Assembly (NCBI GenBank): GCA_039638295.1 | Contig: JBDIWJ010000002.1 | Coordinates: 12,415 to 76,414, forward strand | Length of the DNA stretch: 64,000 nucleotides | Source of the DNA: Candidatus Phoenicimicrobium oleiphilum | Lineage (GTDB): Bacteria > Atribacterota > Phoenicimicrobiia > Phoenicimicrobiales > Phoenicimicrobiaceae | Direction: 5' to 3' | In this document: in pieces, positions 9,739-52,900 of the stretch | Layout: every line of letters begins with the position of its first letter | Position numbering within the stretch: the first letter of the stretch is position 1 | Notes under the pieces: model-generated | What the model was told of the DNA's origin: nothing | The model's input: only the letters and a program-made list of their open reading frames with translations | The model's database searches: none | Made by a program: the position numbers and the translations under genes

Positions 9739-10080
9739 CTATCTACCAAATTCCTCCAAAATCTTTGCAACATTTTCTGATACAATTTCTCCACAATTCG
9801 GGCAATGAAATATTTTGCCATTTTTCATTTCTTTAAACTTTAAGCCGGTACCTTTGTTTGGTGATTTCTTAAAAACAGTAAACAACCTGCCATAAGAATC
9901 TATATCTTCCATAAGTCCACATTTTGGACACTCAATTAATTCTCGGTCATCAACAAATATTCCAAGTGACCTGGCTTCTTCTTTTATTTTTATAAGTTGT
10001 TTAGTTGCTTTAAAAAGTTTGTCTGGAATAATGGTTCTTTTATCTGATATTTTCTTATTCATCTTTTGCTTTTTTATCAA
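9739..10080 (-). CDS. small zinc-ribbon protein (CPKC...CPNC) embedded in the Type I R-M operon
   Basis: 113 aa with two CxxC pairs (CPKCG, CPNCG). Overlaps upstream gene by 26 nt. Confidence 0.5.
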   Translation of the reverse strand: MIKKQKMNKKISDKRTIIPDKLFKATKQLIKIKEEARSLGIFVDDRELIECPKCGLMEDIDSYGRLFTVFKKSPNKGTGLKFKEMKNGKIFHCPNCGEIVSENVAKILEEFGR

Positions 10081-11518
10081 CTTTCCTCAATTTAGAGCCG
10101 TTTGTGAGCCCTTTATGAGCCATTTGAGCCGTTTGTGAGCCCTTTATCCGATAAAAGGTTCCCTTCCCAGTCATCCCGATTTGCTCAAATAGTAATAAAT
10201 TTACGAGTTGAGAAAGATGGCGAGTTGCTGTTGGTTTGGAAACACCTGCTAACTTTTGATATTCTTCATTAGTAATCTTACCTTTTTCTTTTACATACAT
10301 CACTGCTTTTATTTGTCTCTCATTTAATCCCATTTTTTCAAGATTCTTTTCAGTCCATTTATCCTTATAAAATATAACATTCATCGTGCCAAATTCTTCT
10401 ATAAAATCTGGCTCAGGGAGTTCTTGTTCTACACAATTTTCAACAATCTTGATTGTTCCTCTACCCCAGCTCTCTATAAAACCAGCAAAATAGAATACTT
10501 CAGCAAGTAATGTATTTCTTGGTTTGGAAAGATGTTTTGTTTTTAATTTCTCTACAGGAACTTCAGGAGGAAGTTTTCCTTCATTCATAATAATGAGTTT
10601 GTCTGAATAAACTCTTATTTGAATATTGGAAGTGCCAAGATAATCTCTGTGAATCAATGCATTGATGATTGCTTCTCTCAAGGATTCATAAGGATATTCA
10701 AGAATATCCCTTCGGTGAATACCTTCATATTTAATCTCACTTATAAGATACTTTGTCCTGAGTGTTTCAAGTGTCTTTTCTAATTGTTCAAATAAATTTC
10801 CTCTTATTAAATCTGAACTTAAAATTTCTGTTTCAGTTAAAAATTTACCTATTTTTACAATAGCAGGAATATAAAACTTTTGAGGATTTTTACCAAAAAG
10901 AAGTATCGCAGCTCTTTTCAGTCTATCGTTTTCTATAAGACCTAATTTATTAATCAGAGTTTTAATATTTGTTTCCTTGACAATTGATGGAATTCTATCA
11001 ACAGCATATTTTTTAAACTGTTGGACAGTTTCTATATCTATGTCATCAAAACTTGCCTGGGCTTCAATAAATTCATCCCATGTTTTTCCCGATTTTCTTA
11101 TCAAAAAATCAGTCAGTTGTTGCCCTTGTAATTGTTGAGTTGTACTTCCGCTCCTCATATAGTATCTTCCATCGTAAGATATTGGTACAGAAGATAATTC
11201 TGTTTTCACTATAATTATTTCTTTGCCTTTCTTTTTCTCTATCTTCACGGCAGGAATAATTCCAAGCTTGTCTTTTATTTTATTTGGCAAGTCAACGAGT
11301 AATTTTCTGGCGTTAATTATGCCCGATATATTTTTATTATCATCTACACCAATAATCAATTCACCACCCTTGGTATTAGCAAAAGCAGAAATAACTTTTA
11401 AGTAATCATCATTCCAATTTGACTTATATTCTATATTTTCTGACTCAGAATGCCTTAATCTCAACCCGGATTTAAACGGATTTGGTTTAATCATTTTTAA
11501 TCTCCAATATTTTCGCAA
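10055..11518 (-). CDS. AlbA_2 (Schlafen-like divergent AAA) / HATPase_c_4 domain protein with C-terminal wHTH
   Basis: [41 protein letters not shown] is the AlbA_2 signature. This class of gene is frequently inserted between hsdM and hsdS. Confidence 0.7.
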
Positions 11519-15787: not shown

Positions 15788-18736
15788 ATGTCTAAACTAA
15801 TGAAGATTAAAAACTTGAAGAATTATGGTATCCCCTCTTATATTTTAGATATCTGGAAAAAACATTATTCCCCTTATTTGCTACCAGTACAGGAGGAGGC
15901 GGTAAAAAATTTTGGGGTATTGGATTCCCGCTTCCGCGAGAATGATAGACATAAAAACCTTTTAGTGATCGCTCCCACCTCTTCAGGAAAGACCTTCATC
16001 GGAGAAATGGCGGCAGTGTATCAGGTAATCCATCAGAAAAAGACCATCTTTATAGTCCCCTCAAGAGCTTTGGCCAGGGAAAAATACTGGCATTTTAAAA
16101 ACCTTTATGAGTGCTGCGGATTAGAAACAGTCCTCTTCAGTCGAGACCGCAAGGAAGATGATTACCGCCTAATTATAGGTGACTATAAATTAGCGGTAAT
16201 GTCCTACGAAAAATTTTATTATTTCCTCTTGAAATTCCCCGAATTTCTAACTAGTGTCTCCTTGATAGTAATGAATGAAGTACAGATGATTGATAACCCC
16301 AGATGGGGACCTATCCTGAAAGAGGTGATAGACCTGCTGCGGGGAAAGTATATGCCAAATCTCAGGATTATCGCTCTTTCTACCTTAATAGAAAATCAAA
16401 AAGCCCTCTTAAAATGGTTTCCCGCTCATCCCTTCATTTCTCATCAGCACCCGCAAGAGATACGCAAAGGGATAGTAAGAAAGGGAGTTTTTAAGTATAT
16501 CACCTCAAATAAGAAGAAGACTTTCAAAAAAGAAATATTCTTTAAACCAAATGCCGTCCGGGATAATTGTTTTAAAGATTATCTTCTGGAAACAGTAAGA
16601 TACTTTGTAAATAAAGATGAGCCGACTCTGGTCTTCTTTACTACCTCAGCTGAGACCCGAAAGTGGGCCAAATGGCTAGCTTCTCAATTAGAAACCCCTG
16701 CTGCCTCTTCTGCCCTAAGGGAACTTGCGGAAATGGAAGAGACCCTATCCCGGGAGGAATTGTCTGAGCTATTAAAAAAGGGGATTGCCTATTATAGTCA
16801 GGACCTTTCCTGGGAAGAGAAAAATTTAGTCGAGACTTACCTCAAAAAGGGAGAGATAAAATTGGTCTGTTCTACTATTACCCTATCAACCGGGGTTCAT
16901 ATGCCTTTTAAGAATGTCATAGTTCCTCAAGATATGTTGAATAATTTTGATGAAAATTGTCCCCATAATTATCGAAGAGGTCTTACCTTTTTCGATATAG
17001 AAAATATGAGTGGAAGTGCCAGGGTATCAGGATTTGGTCGAGTAATCTTTTTAGCCTATTCTCTCCTCACTGAGACCATCTTTCATAATCTCTATTTCAA
17101 TTATAATCATAATTATAATCATTATAGGACTTCAAAAACTCAAATAAAAAAGGTAGATGACCTGCTCACTTTCTTGTTGTACTTACTGTCTAAATATAAC
17201 TGCCAACCAGAGAAGATAAAAAATTATTTAAGGGAAGGAAAATTTATCTTTCCCGGAAATCAGAATAAATCTGCTGAAAAAGAAGACTGCTTCTGTGGTT
17301 ACTGGCAGTTTAGCTTTAACCAGGATAATTTAGAGGAAAAGATAGATAATTATCTGAATATTTTAAAAGAGAATAAATTGATTAGAGAGAACAGAGACGG
17401 TATCTTATCTCCTACTATCAATGGTACTCTAATTACTGCTAAGAATATCAAGGTAGAAACTTATCTTTTTTTAAAAAACTGGATGAAACATAGTAAGAAG
17501 GGGGAAATCAGTGATCTGGAGATACTCCTTCTTTTAGCCTTTAGTCCGAATGGTATGGAAATTTTCCTCCCCTGCTCTTCTTCTTGCCGAGATACTTATA
17601 AAAAAGAAAGATATAATCTCGACTGGACAGGGAATTACTGGAACAAACTCCTACAACTGGTCTTTGAACAGGATGAAGAGGATAAGAAGATTTATCAGGA
17701 CATACTTATATTGAAGAAAGAAAAGGAAGAGAAGTTGGAATGGAAGGATTATCTAGCTTTTAAGAAGACTCATTTACTGTATGACTGGATAAAGGAGAGT
17801 AAGGATATTAAAACCCTGGAACAGGAGTATGACCTCTATGGAGGGACTATTCGGAGATTGGTAGATAATTTTTCCTGGCTGACTGATAGTTTGGCAGAAA
17901 TAGCAGAAAGCGAAGGCTGGGGTAAGGATAGAAAAGATGATTTAAATAAGATAAAGAGGCTATCCAAAAGATTGATTGATGGTGTAGAAGAAGATGGTCT
18001 GAATTTATCTCAGTTATATATCCCTGGATTAAGCCGATATTATATAAGAAAATTGGTAGAAGCAGGGTATAGTGATAAGAAATGTTTTAAGGAGACCTCG
18101 GAGGAAAAATTAAGGAAGGTACTGCCCGAGAGATTGGTTAAAAGGATTCAAAAGATGATAAAGGAAGAAAAAGAGATTTTGAAGGGTAAAAGACAAAAGA
18201 TGATGGTTGAGGTTAGAAAATTAGAAGATAGGAAGAGGGAATTAGAAACTAATAAACTTACACCTGAAGCTGGGAAACTAGAACCTGAATTTTATTCTTT
18301 AAAATCTGAAACTGAAAATTATAAATCCAGGCTAATAGCTGAAGACCAAGATGTTGCAATTCGTCAACCCCTGCCCAAAAAGAAAAACTATGAGCCAAAG
18401 ATTATCCTGGAAATTGATCAGCACCGCCCGGATAGGATTATTTTTGAGGAGAAAGAAATAAAACTCACCCCCTTAGCCTTTTCTCTTATCTATTTATTAG
18501 CACAAAACCGAGGAAAGGTATTGTCTTATAATTATATCTCGGATACTCTGTGGAAGGAAGACAAAGATGCTACATACCATCGTCTCTGGTATCATCTATC
18601 TAATGCAAAAAATAATATTATAAAAAGAATCGGTAAAAATAAAAAAAATCAAAATAAAATCAAAAATCTCCTTAAAGTAATTAGAGGAAGAGGCTTGATA
18701 TTGAATATTGAGGAAAAGCAATTAAAAATTCTATAA
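15788..18736 (+). CDS. Hel308/Ski2-like SF2 helicase with degenerate motif II, fused to coiled-coil and C-terminal OmpR/PhoB-type winged-helix DNA-binding domain
   Basis: Walker A APTSSGKT and motif Ia PSRALAREK are present. Motif II reads NEVQ instead of DEVH and motif III reads LST instead of SAT. RecA2 motifs (TLSTGVHMP) are retained and there is a Hel308-type HhH near 730. The C-terminal residues about 860-982 (KLTPLAFSLIYLLAQNRGKVLSYNYISDTLW...) are a trans_reg_C-like winged helix. Confidence 0.8.
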   Translation: MSKLMKIKNLKNYGIPSYILDIWKKHYSPYLLPVQEEAVKNFGVLDSRFRENDRHKNLLVIAPTSSGKTFIGEMAAVYQVIHQKKTIFIVPSRALAREKYWHFKNLYECCGLETVLFSRDRKEDDYRLIIGDYKLAVMSYEKFYYFLLKFPEFLTSVSLIVMNEVQMIDNPRWGPILKEVIDLLRGKYMPNLRIIALSTLIENQKALLKWFPAHPFISHQHPQEIRKGIVRKGVFKYITSNKKKTFKKEIFFKPNAVRDNCFKDYLLETVRYFVNKDEPTLVFFTTSAETRKWAKWLASQLETPAASSALRELAEMEETLSREELSELLKKGIAYYSQDLSWEEKNLVETYLKKGEIKLVCSTITLSTGVHMPFKNVIVPQDMLNNFDENCPHNYRRGLTFFDIENMSGSARVSGFGRVIFLAYSLLTETIFHNLYFNYNHNYNHYRTSKTQIKKVDDLLTFLLYLLSKYNCQPEKIKNYLREGKFIFPGNQNKSAEKEDCFCGYWQFSFNQDNLEEKIDNYLNILKENKLIRENRDGILSPTINGTLITAKNIKVETYLFLKNWMKHSKKGEISDLEILLLLAFSPNGMEIFLPCSSSCRDTYKKERYNLDWTGNYWNKLLQLVFEQDEEDKKIYQDILILKKEKEEKLEWKDYLAFKKTHLLYDWIKESKDIKTLEQEYDLYGGTIRRLVDNFSWLTDSLAEIAESEGWGKDRKDDLNKIKRLSKRLIDGVEEDGLNLSQLYIPGLSRYYIRKLVEAGYSDKKCFKETSEEKLRKVLPERLVKRIQKMIKEEKEILKGKRQKMMVEVRKLEDRKRELETNKLTPEAGKLEPEFYSLKSETENYKSRLIAEDQDVAIRQPLPKKKNYEPKIILEIDQHRPDRIIFEEKEIKLTPLAFSLIYLLAQNRGKVLSYNYISDTLWKEDKDATYHRLWYHLSNAKNNIIKRIGKNKKNQNKIKNLLKVIRGRGLILNIEEKQLKIL

Positions 18737-19084
18737 GGCAAAATTTATGTATCTATAATTTTTAACATTATTTCCAATTTTCTCTCTCATTTAAATTTAA
18801 TTTCACCCTTTTTTCAATCTTATCTTAATCCTCACTTTTAAATCATTCATTATTTTTAAAATCATAAATTTCTTGACTTTTCTTCTTCATTTTTTTTCAA
18901 AAAAACCATCCAAAATTACAAAAAATATTCAAAATAATTAATAATTTTTTTAATAGCTTACGATTAGGATTGAAAATAAAGGCTTACAAAAATATTTTTT
19001 ATCGAATGAAATTAGACTAAAATTTTAACAAAATTAGACTGAAATTAGACTACAAATCAGGGTCTTTTATGTTCTAATAAAAAG

Positions 19085-19440
19085 GGTTAGCCAAAATAGT
19101 CGTTAGTCGTTAGTAGGGCAGGCTCACCTGTCTAGGTAACTGTAGGGCTACGATGTATCTGCCCACATAATTGCTCAATGTCATTGCGAGCGACTATAGG
19201 GAGCGTGGCAATTTCAAATGTAGGGGTTCGATTCATCGAACCCGTTTCGGGGCAGATAAATTAGACCCCTACTTTAAATGTCATTGCGAGCCCTGATTTA
19301 TCAGGGCGTGGCAATCTCATAAGTGTAGGGGCACGATGCATCGTGCCCAGGAAAAACAAATGACCATAAAACAGGGAGGGCACAATTCATTGTGCCCCTA
19401 CAATAATCTCATCTCAAGCTAACCAAAACTTCTAACAGAA
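19085..19440. repeat. cluster of concatenated palindromic repeat units (all four core types)
   Basis: Contains GTCATTGCGAGCGACTATAGGGAGCGTGGCAAT, GTAGGGGTTCGATTCATCGAACCC, GTCATTGCGAGCCCTGATTTATCAGGGCGTGGCAATCTC and GTAGGGGCACGATGCATCGTGCCC...GGGCACAATTCATTGTGCCCCTACAA. Confidence 0.8.
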
Positions 19441-19451
19441 AGGGAAGATAT

Positions 19452-20432
19452 ATGGAAAAAGAAAGACCAAATATTAAAACTAAATTATCTGAAGAAGGTT
19501 ATGTTATTATACCAGCTTATTTTTTAAATAATTGGACCGAAGTATTAGGAACCGGGCCAAGTATGCTGTATATTCAATTACTTAATTACTGTTATAAGGG
19601 AAAGGATATAGCCTGGCCTACTTTGACTACCTTAAGTAAGAAGATGCAACTTACTCCCAAGACTATAACCAGATACCAGAAGGTATTAACCAAATATGGC
19701 TTGATTAAAAAGATAGTCAAGAGAAAGACTTCTTTAGGAAGTTGTAGGAGAAATATTTACCAAGTTACTCCCTTAGATAAGGTAAAAAATTCCCCCCTTA
19801 TGAGTAATTTTTTCCCCTATATAGAGGAAAAAATTACCCCTAATATAGGGAAAAATTTACCCCTAAAGCATAACAATATAAACAATACCAATACAACAAC
19901 AACAAAAGCTGCTGTTGCTGATTTTAAAAAAAGAAAAGGAGAAGAAAAGATGAAAACCCTAAGAGAACAACTACAGGATTTAGATTTTAAAGAAAGCTTT
20001 ATCGAGAAATTACTGAAAGATTTTGACCTTAAGAAGATTGAGGAGAAATTAGATCTGTTATTGGTAAGGAGGAATATCCAGAACCCTACCGGCTGGCTCT
20101 ATGCTGCCTTAAAGAATGATTATCAGGACCCCCAATCCTCTCTGTCCTTCCCGCCATCCCCTTTGTCATTCCCGCGAAAGCGGGAATCCATTAAATCTCC
20201 CCACCAGGAGTCTATGAAGCAAGGTAGGGGCACGATGCATCGTGCCCAGGAAAAACAAATAACCATAAAACAGGGAGGGCACAATTCATTGTGCCCCTAC
20301 AAAATCATAAGTAATGGCAATCTCAGAGAAAATCCTCCCGAACCAGCCTCCCGCCAGAAAGCCCTAAAGGCTATAAGACTCATCCGAAAGAATCTCTCTT
20401 CCCTCTCCCCGGGAGGGAGAGGACCAGGCTGA
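19452..20432 (+). CDS. HTH_36-type helix-turn-helix protein (phage/plasmid replication-organizer-like); C-terminal about 90 codons read through repeat elements
   Basis: N-terminus YVIIPAYFLNNWTEVLGTGPSMLYIQLLNYCYKGKDIAWPTLTTLSKKMQLTPKTITRYQKVLTKYGLIKK matches the HTH_36 pattern. After about residue 235 the frame runs into the repeat cluster at 20140-20430 without a stop. Confidence 0.55.
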   Translation: MEKERPNIKTKLSEEGYVIIPAYFLNNWTEVLGTGPSMLYIQLLNYCYKGKDIAWPTLTTLSKKMQLTPKTITRYQKVLTKYGLIKKIVKRKTSLGSCRRNIYQVTPLDKVKNSPLMSNFFPYIEEKITPNIGKNLPLKHNNINNTNTTTTKAAVADFKKRKGEEKMKTLREQLQDLDFKESFIEKLLKDFDLKKIEEKLDLLLVRRNIQNPTGWLYAALKNDYQDPQSSLSFPPSPLSFPRKRESIKSPHQESMKQGRGTMHRAQEKQITIKQGGHNSLCPYKIISNGNLRENPPEPASRQKALKAIRLIRKNLSSLSPGGRGPG

Positions 20433-20625
20433 GGATAGAATATATGAGTTTGATTCATCGAACCCGGTAATCGTAGGACAGGCGTCTCGCCTGTTTAGGC
20501 AAATGTAGGGGTACGATGTATCGTGCCCCCATAACAGCAATAGTGTCATTGCGAGCCCTGATTTATCAGGGCGTGGCAATCTCAAATGTAGGGGCTTTAT
20601 TTATCAAGCCCCCCAGAAAGGAGAA
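20140..20625. repeat. about 500-bp array of palindromic repeat units ending in an AGAAAGGAGAAGATTA ribosome-binding sequence
   Basis: GTCATTCCCGCGAAAGCGGGAATC, GTAGGGGCACGATGCATCGTGCCC...GGGCACAATTCATTGTGCCCCTACAA, CCTCTCCCCGGGAGGGAGAGG, GTAGGACAGGCGTCTCGCCTGT and GTCATTGCGAGCCCTGATTTATCAGGGCGTGGCAATCTC, followed by the GAAAGGAG RBS. Confidence 0.8.
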
Positions 20626-20631
20626 GATTAG

Positions 20632-20955
20632 ATGTCTGAACTAAAAGAACTAATTTTACAGGCCAAACAGAAAGACGTAAAGGCAATGGAGGAATTATTT
20701 CTAAAATTTAGACCCTTACTAAAATCCCAAGCCAAAAGGTATGCCAGAGCAGGATTAGAATATGAGGAGGTCTTCCAACAGGCCTCCTTACTCTTTATCC
20801 TGGCAGTCTATGACTACCAGGAAAAGGAAAGTATTCCCTTTGCCGGCTATGTTAAAAAGAGAATCAATTGGGGGCTGTGGATGTACTATCGGAAATATCT
20901 TAAACAAAGAATAGAGATCTCCTCTGGCCTAAAACCAGAAGAACTGAACCAGTAG
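20632..20955 (+). CDS. sigma-70 region 2-only protein (RsoA/co-sigma-like half of a split sigma factor)
   Basis: FLKFRPLLKSQAKRYARAGLEYEEVFQQASLLFILAVYDYQEKESIPFAGYVKKRINWGLWMYYRKY resembles sigma-70 region 2.1-2.4 (group 4/5 sigma). The stop codon TAG is supplied by the first bases of the inserted repeat. Confidence 0.65.
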   Translation: MSELKELILQAKQKDVKAMEELFLKFRPLLKSQAKRYARAGLEYEEVFQQASLLFILAVYDYQEKESIPFAGYVKKRINWGLWMYYRKYLKQRIEISSGLKPEELNQ

Positions 20956-21095
20956 GACAAGCATCTTGCCTGTCCAGGCAAATGTAGGGGCACGATGTAT
21001 CGTGCCCCCATAATGGCAATAATGTCATTGCGAGCGACTATAGGGAGCGTGGCAATCTCAACCGTAGGGACCTGTTTCATCAAACCCATAGAAAG
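20953..21095. repeat. palindromic repeat element inserted between the sigma region-2 and region-4 ORFs, carrying the AGAAAGGAGAAGATTA RBS at its 3' end
   Basis: GTAGGACAAGCATCTTGCCTGTCC, GTAGGGGCACGATGTATCGTGCCCCC, GTCATTGCGAGCGACTATAGGGAGCGTGGCAATCTC, then AGAAAGGAGAAGATTA. The same 16-mer precedes the ORF at 20632. Confidence 0.8.
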
Positions 21096-21105
21096 GAGAA
21101 GATTA

Positions 21106-21306
21106 TTGGATAGATTAGAACATATCTTAATAAAAATCGATCTAAAAGAAGCTTATAAACGACTAACCGAAAGAGAAAAGAAGATTATCACTCTTTATTA
21201 TCTGGAAGGATATAAAGATGAAGAGATAGCCAGATTATATGGAATCAATCGTCAAAATGTAAATCGTCAACGTAAACGAGGAATATCAAAATTAAAAATA
21301 TTTTAA
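21106..21306 (+). CDS. sigma-70 region 4-only protein (SigO-like half of split sigma factor), TTG start
   Basis: LDRLEHILIKIDLKEAYKRLTEREKKIITLYYLEGYKDEEIARLYGINRQNVNRQRKRGISKLK is a sigma region 4.2 HTH. The TTG start lies 8 nt after the GAAAGGAG RBS. The listed 103-aa ORF has a repeat-derived N-terminus. Confidence 0.6.
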   Translation: MDRLEHILIKIDLKEAYKRLTEREKKIITLYYLEGYKDEEIARLYGINRQNVNRQRKRGISKLKIF

Positions 21307-21393
21307 TTTTTTTTAAATAACTGTAGCGAAATCACCCCTTTTTTGCATCTATATAAATAGAGGGAGTTTTTAGTCAAACTAAAAACAGTAACC

Positions 21394-21464
21394 AGTAATG
21401 AGTAATAAGTAAAAGCCATAAAGATACAAAATTACCTTGTTTATCACTTATTACTCGTTACTTA
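21394..21464 (+). other. long imperfect inverted repeat (about 19-nt arms, 30-nt loop) between the sigma gene and DUF1659 gene; candidate terminator/attenuator
   Basis: AGTAATGAGTAATAAGTAA ... TCACTTATTACTCGTTACT. Confidence 0.35.
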
Positions 21465-21469
21465 TTACC

Positions 21470-21493
21470 CTAATTGACCTATAGGTCAATTAG
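21470..21493. promoter_or_regulatory. perfect 24-bp palindrome CTAATTGACCTATAGGTCAATTAG, candidate operator
   Basis: Perfect dyad 20 nt upstream of the DUF1659 gene RBS. It shares the GGTCAATT core with downstream AATTGGT iterons. Confidence 0.4.
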
Positions 21494-21514
21494 GCAGAAG
21501 GGAGGTGATTAATA

Positions 21515-21742
21515 ATGGCCACAGTCGTCATAGTTCCCCGAGATTCATCTTTACAACTAAGACTGGTAGCTGGCACTAATCCTACTACCGGAGCACCTAT
21601 CATTCAAGCCAAGACTTTTAATAAAATAAAGTCCAGTGCAATCGACCAGGATATCTATGATGTAGCTACTGCCTTGGTAGGGCTACAGAAGTACCCGGTA
21701 GATGAGATCAGACTGGAAAAAGAATCCCAATTAACTGAATAG
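21515..21742 (+). CDS. small protein, DUF1659-like
   Basis: 75 aa with GGAGGTG RBS. Resembles the Firmicutes DUF1659 family, which pairs with DUF2922. Confidence 0.45.
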   Translation: MATVVIVPRDSSLQLRLVAGTNPTTGAPIIQAKTFNKIKSSAIDQDIYDVATALVGLQKYPVDEIRLEKESQLTE

Positions 21743-21825
21743 TCGTTAGCTCAAAAGAAAGTAAATATTTAAAAATAAATCAATCAATCAACCTTCCCTA
21801 ATTGGCAATGGTCAACCATATTTAT

Positions 21826-21863
21826 GAATTGGTCAATTGGTGGATTGGTGAATTGGTCAATTG
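21826..21863 (+). promoter_or_regulatory. five direct AATTGGT iterons (GAATTGGTCAATTGGTGGATTGGTGAATTGGTCAATTG) immediately upstream of RBS
   Basis: Direct inspection. A similar triple iteron lies at 22919-22946. Confidence 0.35.
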
Positions 21864-21881
21864 ATAAGGAGGTGAAAACAG

Positions 21882-22154
21882 ATGGCTACCACTTTAGGAC
21901 AAGTAACCACATATAAGAGATTGTATATGCAGTTTAGAGATAGTGCAGGAAAATCGGTAAACCTTACCCTAAATAACCCTAAGACTGTAGAGGATGGAGA
22001 TTATGTGGATTTTGCAGCCCAGGATACCGCTATTGAGGGGGTAATGGATACCATCATTGCCAAGAACATCTTCCATAATAATGGTAATGACTTAGTAGCT
22101 AAAGTCAATGCTCGAATCCTTGATTACAAGTCTACTGATGTTATGGATGTATAG
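21882..22154 (+). CDS. small protein, DUF2922-like
   Basis: 90 aa with AAGGAGGTG RBS. Pattern ...LTLNNPKTVEDGDYVDFAAQD..IIAKNIF...LVAKVNARI resembles DUF2922. Confidence 0.45.
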   Translation: MATTLGQVTTYKRLYMQFRDSAGKSVNLTLNNPKTVEDGDYVDFAAQDTAIEGVMDTIIAKNIFHNNGNDLVAKVNARILDYKSTDVMDV

Positions 22155-22189
22155 CTCAGGGGCTACCACCCCTTGGCGGTTAGCTGGTT

Positions 22190-22345
22190 AGCTAGTTTAC
22201 CAGTTAAGTTCCTGGGGGAGGTAACTCCCTCAGGAACAGATATGTAGGGGTCTGATTCATCAGACCCGAACAATAATGGGTCGGATAAATCCGCCCCCCT
22301 ACCCTAAAAGTCATTGCGAGCGACTGAAAGGAGCGTGGCAATCTC
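22190..22345. repeat. palindromic repeat units (GTAGGGGTCTGATTCATCAGACCC, GGGTCGGATAAATCCGCCCCCCTACC, GTCATTGCGAGCGACTGAAAGGAGCGTGGCAATCTC)
   Basis: Direct inspection. Confidence 0.75.
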
Positions 22346-22380
22346 TTAAAAACTATTTTCGACTGAAAGGAGAAAATTAT

Positions 22381-22761
22381 ATGTTAGAAACAATTTTAAG
22401 TAAATATCTATTAAATGCCTTACTTATTGCTATCGTCTCTCTCGGTTATGGTCTCTTAAAAAACAGATTAGGAGAAGAGAGAGCTAACACCATTAAAGAG
22501 GCCATTCTCTCGGCTATGCTCTGGGCAGAAGAGGAATTGGGTATAGGCAATGGGAGTAAGAAATGGGAGATAGCCTGGCAAAAGCTTATAGAGATATTAG
22601 CCGAGAAGAATATCAGCCTGAGAAAGTCAGAGGAGAAAGCGGTAAAGACGATGATGAAAGCCAATATTGGGAAGATTAACCGACAGACCTATGATGTCTT
22701 ATTGAAGAAAAAACTTTTGAAAGACAAAGGTCCTGTTCAGCAGGCAATCCCCCTAAACTAG
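22381..22761 (+). CDS. phage holin, LL-H (Phage_holin_6_1)-like
   Basis: ATG at 22381 after CGACTGAAAGGAG RBS. N-terminal TM helix, then ...IKEAILSAMLWAEEELGIGNGSKKWEIAWQKLIEIL typical of LL-H holins. Confidence 0.5.
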   Translation: MLETILSKYLLNALLIAIVSLGYGLLKNRLGEERANTIKEAILSAMLWAEEELGIGNGSKKWEIAWQKLIEILAEKNISLRKSEEKAVKTMMKANIGKINRQTYDVLLKKKLLKDKGPVQQAIPLN

Positions 22762-22774
22762 CCATTGTTTAATA

Positions 22775-22900
22775 ATTGTCGGTTGGATAGGCGTCTCGCC
22801 TGTCTACAATGTCATTGCGAGCCCTGTTTTATCAGGGTGGTACAATCTCTACTGTAGGGAATCGATTCATCTAACCTGTCTTTTTGAGTCGGATAAATCC
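22775..22900. repeat. palindromic repeat units (GGATAGGCGTCTCGCCTGTCTACA, GTCATTGCGAGCCCTGTTTTATCAGGGTGGTACAATCTC, GAGTCGGATAAATCCGTCCCCTACA)
   Basis: Direct inspection. Confidence 0.75.
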
Positions 22901-22975
22901 GTCCCCTACATAATTAGACAATTGGTAGATTGGAGAATTGGTAAATTAACTAACGACTGAAAGGAGTTAGTTCTT

Positions 22976-23356
22976 ATGCAGATGTTAAATGAAGTAAATA
23001 ACATCGATATTGCTCCTTACTTTAAATTATCTGAATTTGCCTGCCCCTGTTGCCGACAGGTGATCTTACACCCTCTACTCTTAAAGAAACTCAGTAAGTT
23101 AAGAGAAACAGTTAATAGACCTCTCTACATTACCTCTGGCTATCGCTGTCTCGGGTATAATCGGAAAGTAGGTGGGATAAAGACCAGTTATCACCTTCTG
23201 GGTCTGGCCGCAGATGTTAGGGCAAAAGGGATGTCTGCCCTTGACCTTTTAGAATATGCGGAGATTATCAATTTTTCGGGAATCGGTTTTTACGAGAAGA
23301 GGAATTTCCTGCATCTGGATGTCCGACCTACTAAACAGAGCCGCTGGAGGGGATAA
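22976..23356 (+). CDS. peptidase M15A family (YcbK/DUF882-like L,D-peptidase; endolysin-type)
   Basis: SEFACPCC...ITSGYRCLGYNRKVGGIKTSYHLLGLAADV...LHLDVR carries the H-x6-D ... H zinc-binding pattern of M15 peptidases. Confidence 0.8.
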   Translation: MQMLNEVNNIDIAPYFKLSEFACPCCRQVILHPLLLKKLSKLRETVNRPLYITSGYRCLGYNRKVGGIKTSYHLLGLAADVRAKGMSALDLLEYAEIINFSGIGFYEKRNFLHLDVRPTKQSRWRG

Positions 23357-23384
23357 AATAGTCGTTAGTAGGAAAGAAGTTAAG

Positions 23385-23590
23385 ATAAGAGACGTAGGGG
23401 CACGATGTATCGTGCCCAGGATAAACAAATGACGATAAAGCAGAGAGGGCACAATTCATTGTGCCCCTACAAAATCATAATAAACAATAATGTCATTGCG
23501 AGCGACTATAGGGAGCGTGGCAATCTCATAATTTATTAGATTGCTTCGTCGTTACACTCCTCGCATTGACATTTTGAGATTGGTATATTG
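23385..23590. repeat. palindromic repeat units including an inverted pair of GTCATTGCGAGC...GCGTGGCAATCTC units
   Basis: GTAGGGGCACGATGTATCGTGCCC...GGGCACAATTCATTGTGCCCCTACAA then GTCATTGCGAGCGACTATAGGGAGCGTGGCAATCTC and a diverged reverse copy GATTGCTTCGTCGTTACACTCCTCGCATTGACATT. Confidence 0.75.
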
Positions 23591-23608
23591 AATTAAAGGA
23601 GGGAATAT

Positions 23609-23878
23609 ATGGATATAAAGACATGGTTAGATATAATTGCTAACCAGGGCTTCCCTATTGCCTTATCAATACTCTTAATTTTTCGTATCGACAGATTTAT
23701 GCAGGAGATAGTGACTGCCCAGAAAGAAGGCTATCGGCAAGTCCTGGAAAACACCAAGGAGATACACAATACTATCACTACTTTAAATCAGCAGAACCGG
23801 GAATATTATTCCTTGCGCTTCTCAGAAGTACAGAAGGAACTCTCTGGAATGAAGGTAGAACTGGGGAAAATTGAATAA
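23609..23878 (+). CDS. BhlA/UviB-family holin-like protein
   Basis: MDIKTWLDIIANQGFPIALSILLIFRIDRFMQE... has an N-terminal TM followed by a coiled coil, like BhlA/UviB bacteriocin-release holins. Confidence 0.55.
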   Translation: MDIKTWLDIIANQGFPIALSILLIFRIDRFMQEIVTAQKEGYRQVLENTKEIHNTITTLNQQNREYYSLRFSEVQKELSGMKVELGKIE

Positions 23879-23892
23879 TTTGGGGTAATAAT

Positions 23893-23940
23893 AAGAGCCA
23901 GGTCTTTTAAATATCAATAGATCTGGCTCTTATTATTTAA
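23893..23940. terminator. bidirectional rho-independent terminator between convergent genes
   Basis: AATAAGAGCCAGGTC...AGATCTGGCTCTTATT hairpin followed by a T-run. Confidence 0.6.
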
Positions 23941-30132: not shown

Positions 30133-30675
30133 CTATATCCCGCTGGCTAACGTAAGTATAAATTTCTGTTGTTTTTGAACTCTTATGGCCAAGTAACTCT
30201 TGAATATACCGTAAATCTGTACCACCTTCCAAAAGATGGGTAGCAAAACTATGGCGCAATGAAGCATATAATCTCTGATATGTTTTTCATCAAGCTCTTT
30301 TGGGTCTTTTGCAAAGTAGTTAATGTATCGTTCAATATGGTGTAGATATGCTTTTTGGGTTTTCTGGCTATATCCCTTTAATTTGAGCTCCTTCTTTACT
30401 ACCTCTGTAATCCTGGCTTGGTTTGGTACTTGTTTATCAGATTTTTGTTCAAAAGGAACTTGCAAGGTAGAGTTTACATAGATATTTTCATTCTTAAAAA
30501 CCGACAAAATCTTTTTTAAAATATCTTCCGAATGGGGAAAACTCCAATACTTTTTATCCGGGTGCCATCTATGGCCCTCAATGGATTTAACCATAGCAAC
30601 AAATTTAGGGTCATACGAAAAAGTAACGATAATTTTGCCTTCCTTTATATCTTTACTGATTCTTACGCTTGCCAT
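30133..30675 (-). pseudogene. int: tyrosine recombinase/integrase with large internal deletion and frameshift
   Basis: Intact N-terminal arm/core-binding region (RWHPDKKYWSFP...QKAYLHHIERYINYF). After DYMLH a +1 frame reads [39 protein letters not shown], which is box II with catalytic H/R/Y. The whole central catalytic domain is missing. Confidence 0.75.
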
Positions 30676-30679
30676 AAGT

Positions 30680-30871
30680 TTATTTTATTAAGTCCTCTAT
30701 ACTTATACCTAACGCTCTAGCAATCTTTGCTACTGTCTGAACAGAAGGTTTTTTAACAACATTGGACTCTAATTTTGTTAAGGTAGTGTAAGGAATACCA
30801 GCCTTCCTTGCAAGACCATCTTGTGTCAAGCCTTTCTTCTTTCTAAATTTCTTTACATTATCGCCAATCAT
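30680..30871 (-). CDS. XRE-family HTH transcriptional regulator
   Basis: 63 aa, GLTQDGLARKAGIPYTTLTKLES is a classic Cro/C1 HTH. Confidence 0.7.
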   Translation of the reverse strand: MIGDNVKKFRKKKGLTQDGLARKAGIPYTTLTKLESNVVKKPSVQTVAKIARALGISIEDLIK

Positions 30872-31243
30872 ATTTTATCCTCGACTTTGTTTCCATATAT
30901 TGATAGCATAGTTAGAGTAACCCTCTTTTACATTCAATATTATACTAAATCTAAAATAATTTTGCAATAAAATTTTGTGCGTTGTCCAGGAAATACTATA
31001 CAATTTTTAAATTATGGCTATTCTCAGTATATCAAAAAAGTATTAGAATTAGTAGAAATAAATCCTGATAAGATAGAATGGAAATTATATGAAGACTGGA
31101 CAGAAAAAATGCTTGCTCAGGTTTATGTGTGGGAAAAAGAACAAAGTCAGTCTTCGCAGTCTTTTGCTTATGAAGAGCGAAGCCGAGCGGAAGCGAGACT
31201 GAGCGAGCCTCAATTTTCCGCAAGAAAATCGCCAAGTTTCGTT

Positions 31244-31320
31244 TGGTCGGGGCGAGAGGACTTGAACCTCCGACCCCCTGAACCCCATTCAGGTGCGCTT
31301 CCAAACTGCGCCACGCCCCG
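31244..31320 (-). tRNA. tRNA-Pro (anticodon GGG), CCA encoded
   Basis: Manual fold of the reverse complement: acceptor CGGGGCG/CGCCCCG, D arm GCGC-AGUUUGGAA-GCGC, anticodon arm CCUGA-AUGGGGU-UCAGG, variable loop GGGUC, T arm GGAGG-UUCAAGU-CCUCU, discriminator A, CCA. Confidence 0.85.
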
Positions 31321-52479: not shown

Positions 52480-52794
52480 AAAAAATATTCCTTCCGTTTA
52501 TTATTATTAAATTGATTAGCTGGTTTTCAAGTTAGCTAGTTAGCCAGTTTAATACTAATAAGTCATTAACCATTAATATGGTTGACAGATGAGCAAACTC
52601 CCCCTGAACCCCTTCTACTAACTTTTTTATTCCCTTTCGGTTTTATATAAATCTTTTCCTGACAATCTTGTTAAAATCCATTATTTTTATTTTAAACTTG
52701 TGCCCGTGAAACATGTACTCGTGAAAACGAGTAACGGGTATAAGAATTTATTTTGAAGCATCGGATTTTCTTTGAAATTCCAATTCACCACTAT

Positions 52795-52900
52795 ATCAAT
52801 TGTAGGGGCACGATGTATCGTGCCCATAGAAAATAATAGATAACAATTTACCGAGGGCACAATTCATTGTGCCCCTACATTCTGATTATAATCAAAAACT
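52795..52900. repeat. palindromic repeat element (GTAGGGGCACGATGTATCGTGCCC ... GGGCACAATTCATTGTGCCCCTACA)
   Basis: Direct inspection. Confidence 0.8.

Follow-up and report, generated by a model that had tools for sequence, protein, structure and literature searches.

A conserved nine-gene chromosomal block of Atribacterota that joins a split sigma factor to a DUF1659/DUF2922 pair and holin, M15 peptidase and YvrJ genes

A region of the Candidatus Phoenicimicrobium oleiphilum chromosome raises the question of what phage-type regulatory and lysis genes are doing where no phage structural genes accompany them. The region lies in a 64,000-nucleotide stretch of contig JBDIWJ010000002.1 (the window) and contains eight ORFs, all on the forward strand at 19452–23878. 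A GGAG/GGAGG-type Shine-Dalgarno sequence can be read ahead of each ORF, in agreement with the earlier note's description of eight co-directional small genes with strong ribosome-binding sites. [quoted passage not shown] It is tentatively proposed here that the block is a cassette that came from a mobile element, is driven by a sigma factor of two subunits, exports a cell-wall hydrolase in the manner of a holin-endolysin system and uses the DUF pair as feedback regulators.

The nine-gene order is identical in the window and in loci L007, L009 and L010. L016 has the matching gene order from the sigma-2 gene onward, with the helicase absent, and L011, a JGI metagenome contig, repeats the L010 arrangement. 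The flanks of the block are unrelated among the five Atribacterota genomes; those in the window contain restriction-modification, TIR, Schlafen and RadC genes, followed by dprA, rsmB, fmt and priA. Purifying selection acts on all nine genes (dN/dS 0.06–0.25, dS >1), and no pseudogene is found among them in the genomes examined. The phage-type holin and endolysin genes, together with a sigma factor and a Rep-like gene typical of phage regulatory and replication modules, could mark the end of a decaying ordinary prophage, with the structural genes either lost or situated beyond the contig. However, no capsid, tail or terminase genes are present in the window (within 19 kb upstream and 40 kb downstream) or in four orthologous loci, which upholds the earlier statement that structural genes are missing, and the genomes examined retain these nine genes and no others, under the selection given above. 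A prophage remnant is contradicted by the window and the orthologous loci and is hardly tenable; it was rejected on the order kept in five genomes, the unrelated flanks and the lack of structural genes in the orthologous loci. The lipoprotein beside the block, described earlier as a PKD/CarboxypepD_reg protein and a possible cargo, contains DUF4382 and CarboxypepD_reg domains and has no Pfam match to PKD. It does not adjoin the block in the other genomes (L007, L009, L010) and was discarded as a cargo candidate for this reason.

The first gene of the block (15788–18736, +) encodes a helicase of 982 aa with DEAD, archaeal helicase domain 4 and C-terminal OmpR-type winged helix domains identified by Pfam. 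It is found at the matching position in L007, L009 and L010 (dN/dS 0.21), and its motor core resembles that of HamB (88 bits). This resemblance, and the location of the block among restriction-modification, TIR, Schlafen and toxin-antitoxin genes, would fit an abortive-infection defence in which the helicase as sensor and the sigma factor as switch trigger holin/endolysin suicide upon phage infection. Such a role is very improbable, however, as no HamA partner is present, none of the other block proteins has a match among the PADLOC models, and neither L016 nor any Bacillota cassette has the helicase.

The next gene, ORF1 (19452–20432, +), encodes a protein of 326 aa (dN/dS 0.25). Its earlier label of HTH_36 protein is supported by Pfam (30 bits) but describes it incompletely, since PHROGs groups it with DnaD-like helicase loader and replication initiation proteins (1e-10). 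The C-terminal motif GWLYAALKNDY resembles the C-terminus of one Rep3 plasmid initiator (pairwise comparison, E 2e-5), and from these features ORF1 looks like an initiator of the Rep/DnaD type with a DnaD_N-like domain. The AT-rich leader upstream of ORF1 contains direct repeats that resemble iterons, AAATTAGACT, at a spacing of 11 or 22 bp (19004–19055, +), and 11-bp-phased arrays occupy the equivalent place in L007, L009 and L010, with a repeat unit that varies by lineage. The membership of the helicase, and of ORF1 with its iterons, in the conserved block had been overlooked.

The sigma factor is encoded as two polypeptides, as had been claimed. The sigma-2 half (20632–20955, +; 107 aa) covers regions 2.1–2.4 and matches Sigma70_r2 at 23.9 bits against a cut-off of 24, HTH_16 at 22.7 bits and the PHROG sigma factor group at 2e-10. 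Five genomes encode it as an ORF of its own, 69–81% identical (dN/dS 0.11). The sigma-4 half (21103–21306, +; 67 aa) begins with a TTG start and matches Sigma70_r4_2 (42.4 bits), Sigma70_r4 (41.9 bits) and TIGR02937 (52.8 bits, above the cut-off of 42.9); it is kept as an ORF of 66–69 aa in five genomes. The two halves are separate genes in 5/5 Atribacterota genomes, each with its own ribosome-binding site and start codon, and are also separate at one Caldisericota locus; they align collinearly with single-chain sigma factors located just upstream of DUF1659 in Bacillota. Within L007 the spacer between them is 55 nt long, free of repeats, and provides the ribosome-binding site and TTG start. 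Division of the sigma factor into two genes is ancestral, and the repeats did not cause it.

Here sigma-2 precedes sigma-4, which is the reverse of the order in Bacillus subtilis, where sigO (sigma-4) is located before rsoA (sigma-2). SigO and RsoA supply these respective regions and both are required. The two-polypeptide sigma factor, together with a YvrJ-family last gene, supports the proposed link to the SigO/RsoA and YvrJ neighbourhood. Nothing points to a TcdR/UviA-type sigma factor, the best NCBIfam matches being to generic sigma-70/ECF superfamily and SigF/G/H/E models, and for this reason the parallels drawn with UviAB and with the TcdR/TcdE genes of the PaLoc are a functional analogy and not a membership. 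The same genomes contain extra five-gene cassettes that have a sigma-70-type promoter (TTGACT-17-TAATAT) but no sigma gene, so the dedicated sigma factor cannot be the sole driver.

The following two ORFs encode the SroA-like DUF1659 protein (21515–21742, +; 75 aa) and the SroB-like DUF2922 protein (21882–22154, +; 90 aa), both labels being borne out by Pfam (75.6 and 63.2 bits respectively). DUF1659 is 80–88% identical across >100 Atribacterota clusters (dN/dS 0.125), and DUF2922 has a dN/dS of 0.078. A conserved non-coding block upstream (21329–21390, +) reads AAATCACCyCTTTTTTGCwTCTATATAAGTAGAGG followed by a hairpin GTTTTTAG..CTAAAAAC; it is conserved in an alignment of five loci and occurs once in the window, where 0 matches are expected. 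Judged by sequence conservation alone, it is a candidate sigma-dependent promoter or operator for the cassette. The palindrome AATTGACC-N4-GGTCAATT (21472–21491, +) lies just 5' of the DUF1659 ribosome-binding site and is also present ahead of other block cistrons in L009, L010 and L016; it was not found outside block cistron leaders in the loci examined. A tandem 8-nt array of ATTGGTNA (21827–21864, +) lies upstream of DUF2922. In Staphylococcus aureus, a single preprint describes ~1000-fold induction of the DUF1659/DUF2922 pair sroAB by SigS, with SroA stabilising sigS mRNA and SroB opposing this. By analogy with this distant organism, the pair probably consists of SroA/SroB-type feedback regulators.

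The lysis genes begin with an LL-H-type holin-like protein (22381–22761, +; 126 aa) that matches Phage_holin_6_1 at 25.5 bits, barely above the cut-off of 24.9, and the PHROG holin group at 3e-8. It has one N-terminal hydrophobic segment at residues 4–22 (1.72 in a 19-residue Kyte-Doolittle window) and is 42% identical to a phage holin adjoining an M15 endolysin. The next gene encodes a Peptidase_M15_3 peptidoglycan peptidase (22976–23356, +; 126 aa; Pfam 81 bits, PHROG endolysin 1.5e-36) without a signal peptide or, by Kyte-Doolittle, a hydrophobic segment. Its columns H73, D80, H113 and D115 are invariant in eight orthologues, and 97 viral relatives were identified. Viral contigs encode relatives of the holin and M15 proteins that are 42–46% identical; these are adjacent in two such contigs, L087 and L088, the latter a confirmed tailed phage in which the pair follows the tail genes. 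The Pfam, PHROG and viral relatives uphold the naming of these two genes as an LL-H holin and an M15 endolysin-type peptidase.

The final gene (23609–23878, +) encodes an 89 aa membrane protein with an N-terminal hydrophobic segment (1.77 in the 19-residue window), a coiled-coil tail and a dN/dS of 0.064. It scores 21 bits against YvrJ, below the cut-off of 29.5; 23/23 aligned positional homologues match YvrJ (PF12841), and it shares the invariant G-F-P...L..R motif common to Bacillota YvrJ proteins. Neither the protein nor any of the 23 homologues matches BhlA, and the BhlA/UviB holin assignment was rejected in favour of YvrJ. Seven of the eight family labels given earlier thus hold.

The signal-less DUF pair could itself be an abundant cargo, released by holin- and peptidoglycan-hydrolase-dependent secretion of a T10SS-like kind with no general lysis. 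DUF1659 and DUF2922 have neither signal peptides nor hydrophobic segments, their ribosome-binding sites are the strongest (GGAGGTG), and no other part of the cassette is as well conserved; several genomes have the pair in multiple or tandemly duplicated copies, and it always lies directly upstream of membrane-protein and hydrolase genes. A precedent exists in ChiW/ChiX, where a holin and a signal-less L-Ala-D-Glu endopeptidase act in secretion. However, the sole experimental work on the DUF1659/DUF2922 family indicates an intracellular regulatory role, and models of the two proteins resemble no solved or viral structure, so their folds give no clue to function. Secretion of the pair is considered rather unlikely.

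The core of the block is also present in Bacillota and Caldisericota. The DUF1659-DUF2922-YvrJ trio is found again on chromosomes and plasmids of Bacillota, a wide distribution that had gone unremarked; often an unsplit sigma gene precedes it and a peptidoglycan hydrolase follows, whose family varies (M15, Amidase_2, Amidase_3). The upstream neighbour is most often a sigma-70-family gene (7/46 cassettes). In the 38 Bacillota cassettes whose downstream sequence is long enough, the neighbouring downstream genes include M15_3 in seven, Amidase_2 in two, Amidase_3 in one and Phage_holin_4_1 in one, and two further loci have Amidase_2; an adjacent hydrolase is found in only about a quarter of the trios. 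DUF2922 is present on 46 clostridial plasmids, and the pair is located immediately after a Rep3 initiator gene on plasmids of C. estertheticum, and after PolA and a D5-type primase-helicase in Acetobacterium. These contexts, the iterons and Rep-like gene, flanks with no relationship between genomes, many of them defence or variable islands, and a tRNA-Pro gene with an integrase fragment 7 kb from the block would suit an active, integrated minimal mobile element. Such a plasmid-like or capsid-less virus-like replicon would replicate by means of the block's helicase, Rep protein and iterons, switch on late genes by its sigma factor and exit by lysis, with DUF1659 and DUF2922 as packaging or structural proteins of a new kind. 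Against this, integrase, transposase and att sites are all absent from the block, many Bacillota chromosomes carry the DUF pair and YvrJ on their own, and no viral contig or phage record with DUF1659 or DUF2922 turned up in pattern-limited scans. Saturated dS with stable gene order is also compatible with long vertical retention. An element that is still active is quite improbable; the block probably has a plasmid- or phage-like element as its ancestor and is maintained today as a chromosomal unit.

Under the proposed regulated hydrolase cassette, both sigma halves would be needed and would assemble on RNA polymerase as an AND gate like that of B. subtilis SigO-RsoA, and the assembled factor would use the conserved non-coding block ahead of DUF1659 to transcribe the cassette. 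The holin and YvrJ, as two small membrane proteins, may give the cytoplasmic M15 peptidase access to the cell wall, with controlled wall cleavage leading to lysis of a subpopulation or to local wall opening. DUF1659 and DUF2922 would act as opposing feedback regulators on the sigma factor or cassette mRNA, like SroA and SroB in the case of SigS.

The genes had been described as separated by palindromic repeats, and such repeats do occupy 5/7 intergenic spacers and part of ORF1. They are not specific to the block, as 18 of the 27 matches in the window (0 expected) lie outside it, and they belong to a genome-wide REP-like family. Repeat scanning places clusters at 19100–19410, between ORF1 and the sigma-2 gene (20433–20612), in the spacer of the two sigma genes (20952–21090), and at 22160–22350, 22782–22944 (followed by a second 8-nt ATTGGTNA array) and 23387–23531. 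REP-derived sequence is also carried in frame inside ORF1 (20139–20322, +), with the conserved C-terminal motif ALKAIRLIR after it. As genome-wide passengers, the repeats sit in the spacers, where they may tune the stability of mRNA segments. The block ends in a perfect 19-bp hairpin between convergent genes (23887–23937; dG -27.1 kcal/mol, z -6.45), a likely terminator that agrees with the bidirectional terminator noted before and that a simple terminator scan missed because its loop is 13 nt long.

The conserved block begins with a helicase gene (15788–18736), followed by the eight ORFs that the earlier note had described (19452–23878), all on the forward strand and each preceded by a GGAG- or GGAGG-type ribosome-binding site. 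The first of the eight, ORF1 (19452–20432), matches HTH_36 in profile searches (30 bits), and its PHROG matches are to DnaD-like helicase loaders and replication initiators (1e-10). The next two ORFs encode a 107-aa protein (20632–20955) with Sigma70_r2 at 23.9 bits, which is at the cut-off of 24, and a PHROG sigma factor match of 2e-10, and a 67-aa protein (21103–21306) with Sigma70_r4 at 42 bits. These are followed by genes for a DUF1659 protein (21515–21742; Pfam 75.6 bits), a DUF2922 protein (21882–22154; Pfam 63.2 bits), a holin-like protein (22381–22761) identified by Phage_holin_6_1 (25.5 bits against a cut-off of 24.9) and a PHROG holin match (3e-8), and an M15 peptidase (22976–23356) identified by Peptidase_M15_3 (81 bits) and a PHROG endolysin match (1.5e-36). 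Most labels proposed from the sequence alone (HTH_36, both sigma regions, DUF1659, DUF2922, Phage_holin_6_1 and Peptidase_M15_3) were thus borne out by profile searches, with that of ORF1 needing correction and that of the last gene being wrong. This last gene (23609–23878) had been called BhlA/UviB (PF10960), an assignment ruled out by Pfam scans in which neither the protein itself (E up to 0.1) nor any of its 23 homologues (E up to 0.01) gave a match. Its product scores 21 bits against YvrJ (PF12841), below the curated cut-off of 29.5, and each of the 23 positional homologues in the alignment has a PF12841 match (E ≤ 0.01; best 1.8e-20). An invariant G-F-P...L..R motif is also common to this gene and the third gene of Bacillota DUF1659-DUF2922 clusters.

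The holin and YvrJ-like proteins each contain a single hydrophobic segment, the M15 peptidase lacks a hydrophobic N-terminus, and no signal peptide is present in the M15 peptidase or in the DUF1659 and DUF2922 proteins. The metal-binding and catalytic residues of the M15 peptidase are intact, with H73, D80, H113 and D115 invariant. A perfect 19-bp hairpin (23887–23937; dG -27.1 kcal/mol, z -6.45) closes the block, and a search of its spacers for known RNA families found none. Taken as a whole, the block joins a two-subunit sigma factor to a holin-endolysin cassette on the chromosome, and so varies two known kinds of system in a new way. The original observation is largely correct, and its interpretation is right in part.

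The block was compared with loci in four other Atribacterota genomes (L007, L009, L010 and L016), and the L010 arrangement recurs on a JGI metagenome contig (L011). The order helicase, HTH_36 protein, sigma-2, sigma-4, DUF1659, DUF2922, holin-like protein, M15 and YvrJ-like protein is shared by the window, L007, L009 and L010; L016 carries a transposase-like ORF, identified by eye only, in place of the first two genes. The DUF1659 protein is 100% identical to one from a Candidatus Atribacteria metagenome-assembled genome and shares 80–88% identity with over 100 protein clusters from Atribacterota. The flanks are unrelated between genomes on both sides of the block. The absence of structural genes noted earlier holds for capsid, tail and terminase genes in the window and the four orthologous loci. 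All nine genes have pairwise dS above 1 and dN/dS of 0.06–0.25, and as all are under selection and none is decaying, a reading of the block as a prophage's tail end is refuted. Phage lysis genes are thus under selection here without virion genes, in a phylum with few cultured members. The YvrJ-like gene of L016, the locus from the single-cell genome SCGC AAA255-G05, is broken after about 30 codons by an apparent inserted nucleotidyltransferase-type gene pair (L016:12293–13365), and an intact, inverted copy lies just downstream of the broken one.

Upstream of the block are a type I restriction-modification system and TIR, Schlafen/AlbA and RadC genes; downstream are a DUF4382/CarboxypepD_reg lipoprotein gene, a TdeIII restriction-modification system and an integrase fragment, then dprA, rsmB, fmt and priA. 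The integrase fragment is a 180-aa ORF that comprises only the N-terminal SAM-like domain of phage integrase and adjoins a tRNA-Pro (GGG) gene (30133–31320). The 30 kb to the left of this site form a patchwork of the defence genes listed here together with a NucS-like gene. The tRNA-Pro gene, the integrase fragment and the defence patchwork suggest a genomic island containing the block. The lipoprotein had been put forward as a cargo of the module, a candidate that was dropped since the gene is not syntenic with the block in the other genomes.

The phage ancestry proposed for the lysis genes is upheld by viral relatives of both proteins, which were found with alignments as queries; single-protein scans with M15, the holin and ORF1 gave none. 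The M15 peptidase has 97 viral relatives with up to 46% identity, and the holin-like protein has three that are 42–45% identical, two of which have an adjoining M15 gene. Neither DUF1659 nor DUF2922 gave a tblastn match in 50,697 phage records, and the 83 viral loci retrieved by searching with the holin or M15 contain neither of them. DUF1659 patterns recovered no relative in IMG/VR, in a pattern-based search that may miss relatives. Judged by these sequence comparisons, the block resembles a phage lysis cassette in its three 3' genes but not in its DUF pair or sigma factor. A close parallel is the tailed-phage contig L088 (IMG/VR 3300044799_000565), where the lysis genes come after those for the minor tail, tape measure and baseplate and encode, in order, a small membrane protein whose N-terminus bears a weak YvrJ-like motif, an M15 peptidase and a holin. 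The holin and M15 genes are adjacent in both, with a small YvrJ-motif membrane protein beside them, although the order is holin-M15-YvrJ in the block and small membrane protein-M15-holin in L088. The phage cassette also lacks the DUF pair and the sigma factor, and it follows tape-measure, baseplate and tail genes. The block has a holin of a recognised family, 42% identical to a phage-encoded homologue, and an adjacent signal-less muralytic enzyme, as a phage lysis cassette does, but it is not embedded in a phage or prophage with structural genes.

The sigma-2 ORF (104–107 aa) and the sigma-4 ORF (66–69 aa) are separate in all five genomes, and each half has its own ribosome-binding site and start codon. 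In alignments, the two halves together run end to end along single-chain sigma factors that several Bacillota encode directly upstream of DUF1659. In L007 the spacer between them is 55 nt long and free of repeats, with an AAAGGAG ribosome-binding site and a TTG start, so the split is older than the REP-like palindromic insertions in the spacer of the window, and these repeats are ruled out as its cause. A Caldisericota metagenome-assembled genome (L067:423–1476) encodes an 88-aa ORF and then a 71-aa sigma-4 ORF directly ahead of DUF1659 and DUF2922. The 88-aa product is sigma-2-like in alignment and has no Pfam match on its own. Natural split sigma factors, which the authors of the ECF reclassification called a group worth finding, are thereby added in two phyla other than Bacillota, namely Atribacterota and Caldisericota.

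The suggested link to SigO-RsoA, the two-protein sigma factor of Bacillus subtilis and the known precedent for the split, and to YvrJ is supported by the separate sigma-2 and sigma-4 ORFs and by the YvrJ-family gene that closes the cassette. Both systems encode sigma-2 and sigma-4 as separate polypeptides from adjacent genes with a YvrJ-family gene in the neighbourhood. They differ in that the sigma-2 gene comes first in the block, that the Atribacterota protein divides cleanly, in ECF-like fashion, into sigma-2 and sigma-4, and that a YvrL/RsiO-type anti-sigma factor and an oxdC gene are not seen here. In B. subtilis, the gene order is sigO and then rsoA. The Clostridium estertheticum plasmid pCF001-B also carries a sigma-70 gene followed by a YvrJ gene. 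One review gives SigO the sigma-2 and sigma-3 domains and RsoA sigma-4, and another source gives SigO sigma-4 and RsoA sigma-2 and states that the two proteins must cooperate. SigO-RsoA is tied to the acid-stress response and is also induced by cell-wall-targeting antibiotics.

The module had also been compared with the UviA/UviB and TcdR/TcdE release systems, with which it shares only the logic of an alternative sigma factor beside a holin-like release gene. Membership in either was not sustained, as there is no BhlA/UviB match, no TcdR signature and no toxin or bacteriocin gene here. The best NCBIfam matches of the sigma halves are to SigF/G, SigH, SigE and the ECF superfamily, generic or other sigma models that leave the group-5 identity of TcdR and UviA unsupported, and the window contains no toxin gene.

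For the DUF pair, the only work found to name both families, in literature searched by family names, is a preprint on the Staphylococcus aureus sigma factor SigS. According to this preprint, SigS induces sroAB approximately 1000-fold, SroA stabilises the sigS mRNA and SroB counteracts it. The staphylococcal genes are likewise a tandem of DUF1659 and then DUF2922 tied to an ECF-type sigma factor, and sequences are conserved at the family level only. The preprint describes no YvrJ, holin or hydrolase gene beside sroAB, whereas in the block the pair and the lysis genes are physically joined in one cassette. AlphaFold models (pLDDT 76 and 81.5) give both DUF proteins a strand-strand-helix-strand order, and the two proteins are not detectable paralogues (hhalign probability 0.2%). 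The models gave no significant match to solved or viral structures, and a PDB sequence search with the pair gave no matches.

In the proposed working of the module, the two sigma halves would assemble and drive the cassette, and the membrane proteins would give the M15 peptidase access to the cell wall. The DUF pair may then act as opposing feedback regulators, because SroA and SroB act in this way on the sigS mRNA of S. aureus. The main rival keeps the same machinery and, by analogy with ChiW/ChiX, makes the DUF pair the exported cargo of a Type 10-like secretion system. The block does contain a holin and a peptidoglycan hydrolase outside a phage. Serratia ChiWXYZ, TcdE/TcdL and Yersinia Tc toxin release likewise rely on a chromosomal holin with a signal-less peptidoglycan endopeptidase outside a phage. 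The holin families differ, with ChiW belonging to holin family 3, as do the organisms and probably the cell envelope; spanin-like genes are not seen here and there is no obvious large cargo. The DUF pair is a candidate Type 10 cargo only.

To look beyond Atribacterota, one genome per species was scanned, which yielded 69 loci. In Bacillota, a YvrJ gene follows DUF1659 and DUF2922 in Moorella, Desulfosporosinus, Romboutsia, Pelotomaculum, Sporotomaculum, Dehalobacter, Acetobacterium, Zhaonella and others. Among the genes adjoining 38 Bacillota cassettes, those for peptidoglycan hydrolases, from families unrelated to one another, are the commonest (M15_3 in seven, Amidase_2 in two and Amidase_3 in one, with a Phage_holin_4_1 holin in one), and Amidase_2 occurs in two further loci. 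This non-orthologous replacement of the adjacent hydrolase argues for a functional link of the trio of DUF1659, DUF2922 and YvrJ to wall cleavage. A sigma-70-family gene is the commonest upstream neighbour (7 of 46 cassettes). The conserved core spans three phyla, and the searched literature does not describe the trio, sigma factor and hydrolase as a system. SigO-RsoA, which controls yvrJ, and SigS, which controls sroAB, are both poorly understood and here become parts of one conserved gene set with a wall hydrolase, and this shared set gives a testable idea of what the two finally control. Two duplications were also observed: in a Peptococcaceae locus (L083:7001–8841) two tandem copies of the DUF pair precede YvrJ and an Amidase_2-SPOR hydrolase, and in Romboutsia timonensis (L026:9974–16506) the whole trio is duplicated 6 kb apart.

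Some Atribacterota genomes carry up to three extra compact copies composed of DUF1659, DUF2922, holin, M15 and a 67-aa YvrJ gene, without a sigma, Rep or helicase gene (L015:10001–11573, L019:7586–8646 and L018:3860–4840, and also at L012, L013, L014, L017 and L020). The promoter in front of these five-gene copies is conserved and of the sigma-70 type (TTGACT-17-TAATAT with a TG extension), and further upstream lies a hairpin, GGGGTCCTTC..GGAAGGATCCC, that is likewise conserved.

The 5' end of the block resembles a replicon. Direct repeats in 11-bp phase lie at the same position upstream of ORF1 in all four full-length loci, with the unit AAATTAGACT in the window, AAAxCTCAT in L007 and AAAyAAATyG in L009 and L010. 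Repeat units that differ between lineages are the pattern expected of iterons co-evolving with a putative binding protein. A C-terminal motif of ORF1 also occurs in the plasmid Rep3 protein encoded ahead of the DUF pair on pCF001-B. In combination with the helicase, the phased repeats and the Rep3 motif point to an origin of the block in a plasmid- or phage-like element. The trio is also found on plasmids elsewhere: DUF2922 matches occur in 46 plasmid records (clostridial plasmids), and the trio is annotated on Paraclostridium plasmids. The DUF pair directly follows the Rep3 initiator on pCF001-B (L086) and genes for PolA and a D5-type primase-helicase in element-like regions of Acetobacterium (L077 and L079). 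A PG_binding_1-M15 endolysin gene and a Phage_holin_4_1 holin gene come after the DUF pair in the two Acetobacterium loci, which have no visible structural genes within 10 kb.

A bolder rival holds that the block is an active capsid-less replicon, which, if true, would make it a new kind of mobile element. The phased direct repeats before a Rep-like gene and the shared C-terminal motif are features of Rep3-type iteron plasmids, but ORF1 has HTH_36/DnaD_N similarity without Rep3 domains, and evidence of autonomous replication was not found here. Wider still, and in our estimate unlikely, is the reading that the sigma factor, DUF1659, DUF2922, YvrJ and peptidoglycan hydrolase form a cassette that is widespread in anaerobic Bacillota, Atribacterota and Caldisericota, has so far gone unrecognised and rides small replicons. 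In Atribacterota it would amount to a minimal element that replicates itself and is competent for lysis but has no known capsid, the DUF pair would be a released or packaging component and not a mere regulator, and the SigO-to-yvrJ and SigS-to-sroAB connections would be fragments of one ancestral system.

The helicase has a Ski2/Hel308-like motor with a HamB-like core and a C-terminal OmpR-type winged-helix DNA-binding domain, which is an unusual fusion. A defence role for the block finds little support: the core resembles HamB of Hachiman (88 bits), no protein of the block matches the HamA (DUF1837) model, and this generic helicase core is the only match to a known defence system.

The palindromic repeats reported between the genes are real, with 27 matches to one REP-like module where none is expected. 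The family is genome-wide, with 18 of the 27 copies elsewhere in the window, so the repeats are enriched in the block without being specific to it. REP-like modules are also read in frame inside ORF1 (20139–20322), resembling the in-frame palindromic elements of Rickettsia. The C-terminal motif ALKAIRLIR is kept after this insert in all four orthologues, and the repeat-derived peptides there differ.

A conserved 60-nt element upstream of DUF1659 in the full block differs from the promoter of the five-gene copies and is a putative target of the split sigma factor. A palindrome, AATTRACC-N4-GGTYAATT, is located 5–20 nt before the ribosome-binding sites of several different cistrons in several genomes (window 21472–21491; L010:9611–9630, 9959–9978 and 10469–10488; L009:11321–11340; L016:11698–11717), has no further copy in the window or the 20-kb loci, and may serve as an operator or form a leader hairpin in the RNA. 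Tandem 8-nt arrays (ATTGGTNA) are found just before the DUF2922 and M15 genes (21827–21864 and 22920–22944), and the only other match in the 64-kb window is a weak one with three mismatches (52780–52801). Related arrays occupy the same spacers of L009 and L016, and other spacers contain heptamer arrays of TTACTYA, AGTCGTT and CTAAAAA.
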